Assembly (NCBI GenBank): GCA_951406725.2
Contig: OX597817.1
Coordinates: forward strand, 104,656,001-104,720,000
Direction: 5' to 3'
Length of the DNA: 64,000 nt
From: Octopus vulgaris
Lineage: Eukaryota
A model generated the notes under the pieces. The model ran no database searches. It was not told where the DNA came from and saw only the letters and a program-made list of their open reading frames with translations. The position numbers and the translations under genes were made by a program. Shown here in pieces: positions 62,863-64,000 of the stretch. Position 1 is the stretch's first letter; every line of letters begins with the position of its first letter.

Positions 62863-63248
62863 TGTGCGTATATGTGTGTGTGTGTGTGTGTGTGTGTGTG
62901 TCCGTGTGTGTGTGTGTTTGTATGTACATATATATATATACATATTGTGTGTGTGTATATATATATATATATATATATATATATGCATATATATATTTTT
63001 TCTTTTGTTTCAGCTCAGAGCTGCGGCCATTTATATATATATATATATATATATTTGGTAAAATAGAAAGATGAATAATCTTGTTGCAGATTAATCAAAA
63101 GTTTAACCGATACCTTGGTAGCAAAAATCACAGCAGAAGAAAGCACGGTTGGAGATAAAACCATTTGGTGTTGCAACCGTGCGTTGGTGCGGATAATTGA
63201 ATTTTAATATTATTAGTGAATTGAAGAAATGGAGTTGAACGAAGATTG

Positions 63249-63367
63249 AACAGAATTCCTTTTATTGCATTCTACACATGTTTCAAAAGCCACAATTTTC
63301 CAAATTCTGATTAAATAAGGATACCATATTGTGGCTTTCTCTTCAGGAAAAAAATAGGAATTCCGTT
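63249..63367 (-). ncRNA. Type I hammerhead ribozyme, identical mirror copy
   Basis: Exact reverse complement of 63456-63574 inside the palindrome; predicted cleavage after 63273 on the minus strand. Confidence 0.85.
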
Positions 63368-63455
63368 GGCAGAACAAAACAGAACAGAGGCGCAGCAAAG
63401 CAATTTGAACGAGGAGGCTCTTTAAGAGCCTCTTTCTGTTCTGTTTTGTTCTGCC

Positions 63456-63574
63456 AACGGAATTCCTATTTTTTTCCTGAAGAGAAAGCCACAATATGGT
63501 ATCCTTATTTAATCAGAATTTGGAAAATTGTGGCTTTTGAAACATGTGTAGAATGCAATAAAAGGAATTCTGTT
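63456..63574 (+). ncRNA. Type I hammerhead ribozyme, intact core
   Basis: CUGAAGA 63477-63483. 12-bp stem II GAAAGCCACAAU/AUUGUGGCUUUU. GAAA 63539-63542. Stem III AC-AUGU-GU. GUA^ cleavage after 63550. Long interrupted stem I AACGGAAUUCC-UAUU-UUC / GAA-AAUA-GGAAUUCUGUU. Confidence 0.85.
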
Positions 63575-64000
63575 CAATCTTCGTTCAACTCCATTTCTTC
63601 AATTCACTAATATATATATATATATATATATATATATATATATATATATATATATATATATATATATATATATATATATATATATATATATATATATATA
63701 TATACATATATATATACATATATTATATATATATACTGGTGCCTTGTTGTACCATTTATCTACTTTTATATATATATATATGACATATATAATATATATT
63801 AATACACACACACACACACACACACACACACACACACACACACACACACGCACACACACATCTATGTGTGTGTGTGTATTTCGTGGAATCCTCTCTCACC
63901 GAGATTCCTGGTGGAAGATTACATTCATCTGATGGTGTCAGTTTACATCTTGTATTAGCTGTCTTTAATTTCTTTAAGAAAGGTATTTAGAGGGTACTTG

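Follow-up and report, generated by a model that had tools for sequence, protein, structure and literature searches.

The window, ie the whole 64,000-nucleotide stretch of Octopus vulgaris DNA that was analysed, holds near its right-hand end two arms of 178 nt each that are exact reverse complements of one another (63211-63388 and 63435-63612), with a spacer of 46 nt between them. The palindrome was confirmed with the coordinates given in the preliminary description (63211..63612). The insertion boundary drawn there was too narrow, since the full insertion runs from 63054 to 63612, the left arm being extended by 157 nt of element sequence up to a (TA)11 tract. Both arms are partial copies of the pLTR of a Penelope-like element (PLE) placed head to head, and the suggestion of an inverted insertion of PLE origin is thereby borne out.

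Positions within the element are numbered relative to its parent copy, L031, with e1, the inferred start site, being the A of AGTTCA(G/C)CC. From left to right, the (TA)11 tract at 63032..63053 is likely the left half of the target microsatellite. It is followed by the long (L) arm (63054..63430, minus strand), a 5'-truncated pLTR with its tail corresponding to about e13-e390 and 98% identical to L031. The outer 157 nt of this arm (63054..63210, minus strand) are the tail, ie the sequence between the short and long 3' ends, which runs on into the ORF in full-length copies. Nucleotides e13-e54 (63389..63430, minus strand) occur in the L arm only and supply 42 nt of the spacer, the other four being filler, TCTT, at the junction of the two copies (63431..63434, plus strand). 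The short (S) arm, a 5'-truncated pLTR comprising e55-e232, lies at 63435..63612 on the plus strand, and beyond it is a long (TA)n tract (63613..63730), likely the right half of the target. The hairpin previously noted as the spacer's own does exist, but six of its eight base-pairs (GGCTCT/AGAGCC) derive from the element and are present in other copies.

The head-to-head junction occurs only once in the genome, neither arm carries a rare allele, and the copy lacks e1-e12, hence also the inferred start site. It had been thought very recent. The insertion is fairly young but not unusually so, as identical arms are found in 7 of the 25 pairs that overlap by at least 100 nt. The locus is one ordinary copy of its family.

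Other mobile elements are present in the window. Just left of the insertion, at 61529-62862, is a Tc1/mariner-like DNA transposon; its terminal inverted repeats of 22 nt match exactly, and its transposase is broken. An open frame of 900 aa at 9817-12519 has endonuclease and RT motifs, from which we take it to be a non-LTR retrotransposon, and two transposase frames (5251-6423 and 6969-7553) are, again from their motifs, presumably of the mariner type.

The hammerhead motif and its folding

The hammerhead core (CUGANGA, GAAA and NUH, with three stems) is present on both strands, the S-arm motif occupying 63456..63574 on the plus strand and its mirror in the L arm 63249..63367 on the minus strand. 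The CUGAAGA sequence lies at 63477-63483 and 63346-63340, respectively. On the plus strand, stem II (63484-63538) has 12 bp and a 31-nt loop, stem III (63542-63549, ACAUGUGU) is self-complementary, and cleavage is predicted after 63550. The positions reported earlier for a type I hammerhead with a self-complementary stem III are thus correct. The statement that each arm is a complete hammerhead needs qualification, however, because each strand has only one such motif, in whichever arm is transcribed second, and the other arm is its antisense.

Of 115 family arms that extend across the core, 103 keep it intact; the changes number 16, 10 of them at the free position N7. Four pairs of stem II show two-sided changes among 11 subfamily variants; as these variants are related sequences, the shuffle numbers for covariation are not probabilities. 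The centre of the stem III octamer is UG, CG or UA among the variants, and its self-complementarity is kept. A covariance-model search did not recover the motif: no match to the Rfam hammerhead models was returned at either threshold (E<=5 and E<=10). The miRNA-like matches that Rfam did return were below their gathering scores, and reflect the hairpin. Judged from the core nucleotides, folding and covariation, the motif appears to be a real hammerhead.

When constrained to the active ribozyme fold, the motif has a predicted energy of -28.8 kcal/mol, compared to -33.1 kcal/mol when these 121 nt fold freely, and the duplex formed by the whole palindrome is predicted at -322.8 kcal/mol. It had been proposed that self-cleavage and duplex formation would compete in transcripts of the locus. 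With the antisense arm transcribed first, and with -322.8 set against -28.8 kcal/mol, a real contest is unlikely. Since the antisense arm comes first and the two ribozymes have opposite polarity, a read-through RNA would be expected to form the duplex and probably not to cleave, and on these folding energies the ribozyme is likely silenced by the 178-bp duplex. The palindrome could feed ADAR or Dicer, as was also suggested, but this would need read-through transcription by the host. Hammerhead motifs of this kind are dimer-dependent and weak in vitro (PMC4209133; this and the other papers cited by number are cited from excerpts). The two ribozymes of the palindrome are on opposite strands, so that no intramolecular ribozyme dimer can form, and in the locus copy the ribozyme would be a passenger. 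In tandem parent RNAs, by contrast, it would act as a dimer through the self-complementary stem III. None of 100 arm 5' ends falls at the ribozyme cut (e168-174), where about two are expected by chance, which shows that ends do not pile up at the cut but not that they are depleted there.

Hammerhead-like motifs of other repeats were seen at several places. At 56934-56965 of the window a short CUGACGA...GAAAC motif in another repeat resembles a minimal hammerhead, and a similar remnant lies 3' of L031. Motifs belonging to other repeat families are found near insertions at L029:3048-3162, L062:2224-2340 and L185:723-828.

The parent element, its protein and its target

A 20-mer from the arm has 147 exact matches in the 2.8-Gb assembly, and the arm itself has at least 53 matches at 96-100% identity (best 40 scored of 1110 candidates). 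L031, the parent, has 718-nt direct repeats that are 99.4% identical and flank the tail and a frameshifted ORF, giving the structure pLTR-ORF-pLTR with a unit of ~3.6 kb. A protein search gave 94 scored RT matches, among which no intact ORF of the exact subfamily of the locus was present; 29 of them had stop-free frames of at least 890 aa, all in sister subfamilies. The term retrozyme, applied to the locus in the preliminary description, is therefore inappropriate, since the locus consists of the pLTR and tail region of a protein-coding PLE family, and none of the 109 regions analysed contained short tandem hammerhead monomers. Twenty of the loci with such long frames have pLTRs, the same hammerhead and tandem copies with a period of ~3620. 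Head-to-tail arrays of full-length sister-subfamily copies, several with open ORFs, were observed at L175-L176 (C1:119513000-119527500) and at L177 (C24), and transcripts of these arrays would contain same-sense hammerheads able to dimerise.

The single ORF encodes 899-908 aa and has the motif YRDD. Structural searches with a protein model (Foldseek and VIA-align) gave telomerase RTs as the top matches (best Z 16.6, rmsd 2.8, 259 aligned). Pfam gave no match on proteins of the octopus lineage. The C-terminal region aligns with the endonucleases of homologues at the (I/V)Y..Y(V/I)G..R..H..E..N positions, and one homologue, P0002, matches PF01541 below the cut-off. In a low-confidence model of the endonuclease region alone (pLDDT 54), VIA-align ranked I-TevI second, a weak match (Z 3.7, rmsd 2.8, 71 aligned), and Foldseek returned nothing at E<=0.001; a homologue search with this region alone also found nothing. 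From the alignment, and with the fold search weak, the region is best termed GIY-YIG endonuclease-like. Between subfamilies dN/dS is 0.08-0.12 in the RT, 0.07-0.19 in the endonuclease region and 0.40-0.85 in the linker (five pairwise comparisons each), values that indicate purifying selection on the RT and endonuclease regions.

The marks of the Hydra clade include RWK, DKT, a lack of CCHH, a CxCX5C linker, terminal CxxC and CxH, canonical hammerheads, (TA)n targets and a length generally <3 kb (PMC8557442). The octopus family resembles that clade in having SDKT at 126, an RW motif (RWL at 41, where Hydra has RWK), no CCHH, and CxLC and CxH in 7/7 and 6/7 aligned copies, respectively. It also shares the canonical hammerhead with a short palindromic stem III, the (TA)n targets, and 5'-truncated inverted copies such as those reported for Penelope-13_HM (PMC8557442). 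It differs in its unit of ~3.6 kb, its ORF of ~900 aa with two poorly conserved inserts, its tail of ~155 nt, and its 12-bp stem II with a 31-nt loop. The CxCX5C linker is absent from 19/19 long octopus ORFs inspected, whereas the linker CxC..C is present in 68 of 71 homologues that have the endonuclease region, and one of the three exceptions belongs to the octopus lineage. The best database homologues outside this lineage are ~30-40% identical, and the nearest named family, Hydra-1_Obim, has, when compared by eye, a different hammerhead and protein. Because the linker is absent, the family is called Hydra-like, a variant lacking the linker zinc finger, and is not filed as a member of the Hydra clade. 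Several traits of EN+ PLEs are found in it (a pLTR hammerhead, inverted 5'-truncated copies and a tail at one end), but the tail is ~155 nt, not 30-40.

TA repeats lie beyond 184 of the 192 family 3' ends, compared to a background of 8% in the same regions and 2% in the window. The linker has been tied to microsatellite targeting as a hypothesis (PMC8557442). The octopus lineage is a counter-example to this, unless its copies are moved in trans by the protein of another family, which is unlikely given the intact, selected ORFs.

Pairing, concordance and junctions of the arms

For analysis of the insertions, 167 loci were merged into 109 regions, partly chosen by queries with the tail or the start site. 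A 3' end at e376 or beyond was scored as long and one at e200-245 as short, nearly all of the latter being at e229-238. The 109 regions contain 82 head-to-head pairs, of which 78 (two of them local duplicates) join a long to a short end and four are of other types; no L+L and no S+S pair was found. Under independent choice of ends the probability of 78/78 L+S is ~3e-25. The 36 unpaired arms, a few of which are tandem or broken pieces, comprise 20 S, 14 L and 2 others. In a sample ordered by position (exact 20-mer, C1-C15; 99 arms in 70 insertions) there were 17 singles and 53 pairs, 51 of the pairs being L+S and 2 other. That the tail is often on one end only has been stated before (PMC8557442, PMC3846280), and it is the strict L+S count that is added here.

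The same rule was found in a second, unrelated repeat family with a hammerhead motif, in which 12/12 pairs are L+S (28 loci, 16 unpaired; two duplicate loci dropped). This family, seen at L128:620-1030 (G000:C4, near 75526600-75527030) and L188-L217, inserts into (TA)n as pairs placed head to head, one end being short and the other ~100 nt longer; no parent ORF was found for it. A palindromic relative of it, with no hammerhead core visible between the arms, lies directly upstream of the parent copy (L031:2300-2490).

Concordance between arms was determined with 57 unique pairs at least 93% identical to L031, two local duplicates having been dropped. In 57 of 58 comparisons at diagnostic sites the two arms of a pair were in agreement, against a mean of 0.49 and a maximum of 0.78 in 5000 permutations, and divergence is 1.1% within pairs and 1.7% between pairs. 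Gene conversion from arm to arm was considered as the cause of the concordance and rejected, as there are 79 arm-unique but only 22 shared rare differences. Pairs that do not overlap also contradict it, 5/9 being concordant, 1 mixed and 3 uninformative. The arm extending further 5' is the S arm in 42 of the 78 pairs and the L arm in 27, the two being equal in 9. In 16/78 pairs the L arm stops 3' of e225, so that there is little or no overlap, and the 5' ends of long arms do not pile up at the short site.

Fifty junctions were resolved (one was skipped, and older copies and arms beyond e-470 were left out). Thirty-two are direct, 21 of these having at least 2 nt of microhomology (null 18%), and the other 18 contain filler, often copied from nearby sequence. 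We take this pattern to resemble end-joining by polymerase theta. A few junctions recur. The same inverted junction is present twice within 1.4 kb at L131 (C5:45587500) and within 5 kb at L153 (C15:60472400), likely through local duplication after insertion. Near-identical junctions, in which an arm ending at e1 meets its partner at the same short word, are shared by L040, L054 and L058, and by L049, L062 and L066, and were possibly annealed through an extra G at e1. The insertions at L061, L090 and L152 are complex, having internal deletions or having been rearranged in three pieces, which suggests that the template was switched by jumps.

That extra G was evident when 5' ends near e1 were compared genome-wide. 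There are 29 exact e1 starts after a non-C base, compared to 38 copies that run on upstream (n=67), and this is the fair count, the other values obtained for ends near e1 (10/100 and 27/164) being inflated by the selection of loci with the start site. G precedes e1 in 20 of the 29 (binomial 9e-8 at 22% G, the cases being not fully independent). When these 20 were examined by eye, 7 were unexplained by the partner arm or TA flank, 10 possibly came from the partner and 3 were unclear. In two insertions (L047/L048 and L051/L052) both arms end at e1 with a G. An extra G is a signature of a copied cap, and we take TCAGTT at e1 to be an Inr-like motif; the G is accordingly read as a copied cap at this motif, although a literature search found no paper on a cap-derived G. 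In Drosophila Penelope the pLTR contains an internal promoter (PMC2377424). In an anole PLE the substrate is uncut RNA, ribozyme cleavage not being required (PMC11167929), and the lack of arm ends at the octopus ribozyme cut fits such a substrate.

Origin of the inverted insertions

The locus is best explained as head-to-head, 5'-truncated copies of the hammerhead-bearing end of a PLE in TA repeats, which probably arose by twin priming on one element RNA. Reading back from the finished insertions, the element protein would nick a (TA)n tract on both strands. The 3'-OH at one nick would prime reverse transcription at the long site, an AC-rich region at ~e390 just upstream of the ORF, and that of the other strand at the short site (e232-238), whose UAAUA-rich sequence would allow a TA primer to anneal. 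A capped, uncut sense transcript starting from the Inr-like TCAGTT in the pLTR likely served as the template. Both cDNAs would stop early and be joined 3' to 3' by end-joining with microhomology or filler; for arms that overlap, the cDNA begun at the short site would have to be displaced by synthesis from the long one. The first in-frame ATG is at e427, downstream of both sites, and many products, that at the locus included, are therefore mRNA leader only. An anole PLE protein cuts and extends both target strands, and reverse transcription starts at two internal sites bounding the tail (PMC11167929). By analogy with the suggestion that tails originate from an endonuclease cut (PMC8557442), the short end could instead be such a cut and not a priming site.

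Taken over the family, the pairing, concordance and junction data are strong, if indirect, evidence for two-site twin priming. The wider proposal has about an even chance of being right: that inverted repeats with a one-sided tail are together the mark of a twin priming that necessarily uses two sites of one capped, uncut RNA of sense polarity, and not of self-priming on antisense RNA, and that (TA)n homing is possible without a linker zinc finger through pairing of primer and RNA at the short site or through the endonuclease. This model of PLE inverted repeats was not found in print, in a search that lay outside most subscription papers and older PLE reviews, and the excerpts of PMC11167929 and PMC2377424 make no connection between the pair of start sites and the paired arms of an inverted insertion.

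The closest competitor is a protein dimer holding two transcripts of one source locus, each subunit being tied to a site of its own, one to the long and one to the short. We consider this unlikely but worth keeping in mind, as a PLE dimer is predicted (PMC11167929), and two RNAs would explain both the fully overlapping arms, with no need for strand displacement, and the G before e1 on both arms of the two insertions above. Allele concordance would follow if only one source locus were active at a time, and the data do not tell one RNA from two in an asymmetric dimer. On a symmetric (TA)n target, however, the asymmetry would have to be built in. Unpaired arms use either site, and a free choice would give about half same-type pairs, of which none was seen. 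Snap-back of a single long-site cDNA, which would fold back and copy itself, with resolution through cleavage at the short, AT-rich site, is improbable. It would account for the longer L arm, junction hairpin and identical arms of the locus copy, and for the 27/78 pairs in which the L arm reaches further 5', but cannot yield the 42/78 in which the S arm does so, the 16 pairs with little or no overlap or the 20 unpaired S arms. As a general route it is contradicted, and only for the locus copy taken alone is the sequence neutral.

Still less probable is self-priming on an antisense RNA template, which was offered for head-to-head PLE repeats and left open there (PMC3846280). Some octopus junctions do lie on palindromic words (GTAC, ACATGT), as noted for rotifer elements, but such words would also anneal two identical cDNA ends. 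Moreover, 5' ends pile up with an extra G at the Inr-like base of the sense strand, and antisense priming predicts neither the non-overlapping pairs nor the strict L+S rule. The non-coding nature, high identity and intact motifs of the palindrome might suggest a non-autonomous retrozyme, a MITE-like palindromic spreading unit, or a dsRNA or ribozyme switch used by the host, all of which we regard as highly improbable. As a spreading unit it is refuted by the junction being unique to the locus. Except for local duplicates and a few repeats driven by hairpins, junctions vary from locus to locus, and the arms are not homogenised, as the 79 arm-unique differences show; moreover, short tandem monomers are lacking and a parent ORF exists. 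That the palindrome is an artefact of assembly or of long-read fold-back is scarcely credible. A perfect palindrome does adjoin long TA runs, and four sequencing runs gave 0 read records across the locus, but the two flanks differ and are unique, the tail is on one arm only, the filler junction is found nowhere else in the genome, and dozens of loci share the architecture with diverged arms.

The origin of tandem and inverted PLE structures and the preference for microsatellites were both named as open in PMC8557442. The octopus family is young, many of its ORFs are intact and dozens of its junctions can be resolved. It offers for these questions a strict L+S rule, a candidate start site that has been mapped, and a lineage from which the linker zinc finger was lost naturally. 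Since reverse transcription can begin on the 5' side of the ORF, the model also accounts for the shedding of short non-coding ribozyme palindromes by a coding PLE. Three quarters of the sampled insertions are palindromic, making the family a plausible source of dsRNA, and nothing marks the locus copy out in this respect.

In twin priming of LINE-1, a single RNA is likewise primed by both target strands, by the second at an internal site, and the inversion junction has microhomology. The internal site of LINE-1 varies and its arms hardly overlap, whereas the octopus PLE uses a fixed second site, and its arms, which overlap as a rule, form a palindrome. The Poseidon element PAc of Anolis carolinensis and Drosophila Penelope (PMC11167929, PMC2377424) share with the octopus family two 3' ends bounding a tail, an AC-rich start region, AT-rich targets, a hammerhead in the 5' leader, an uncut RNA template and an internal Inr-type promoter in the pLTR, but their tail is 30-40 nt and inside the ORF, compared to ~155 nt and upstream of the ATG at e427 in octopus. 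Animal non-LTR retrozymes (bioRxiv 10.64898/2026.07.22.740005, also cited from excerpts) are, like the octopus copies, short non-coding sequences derived from PLEs with a type I hammerhead. They form tandem arrays, however, for which rolling-circle spread is proposed, whereas the octopus copies are single inverted by-products of a coding element.
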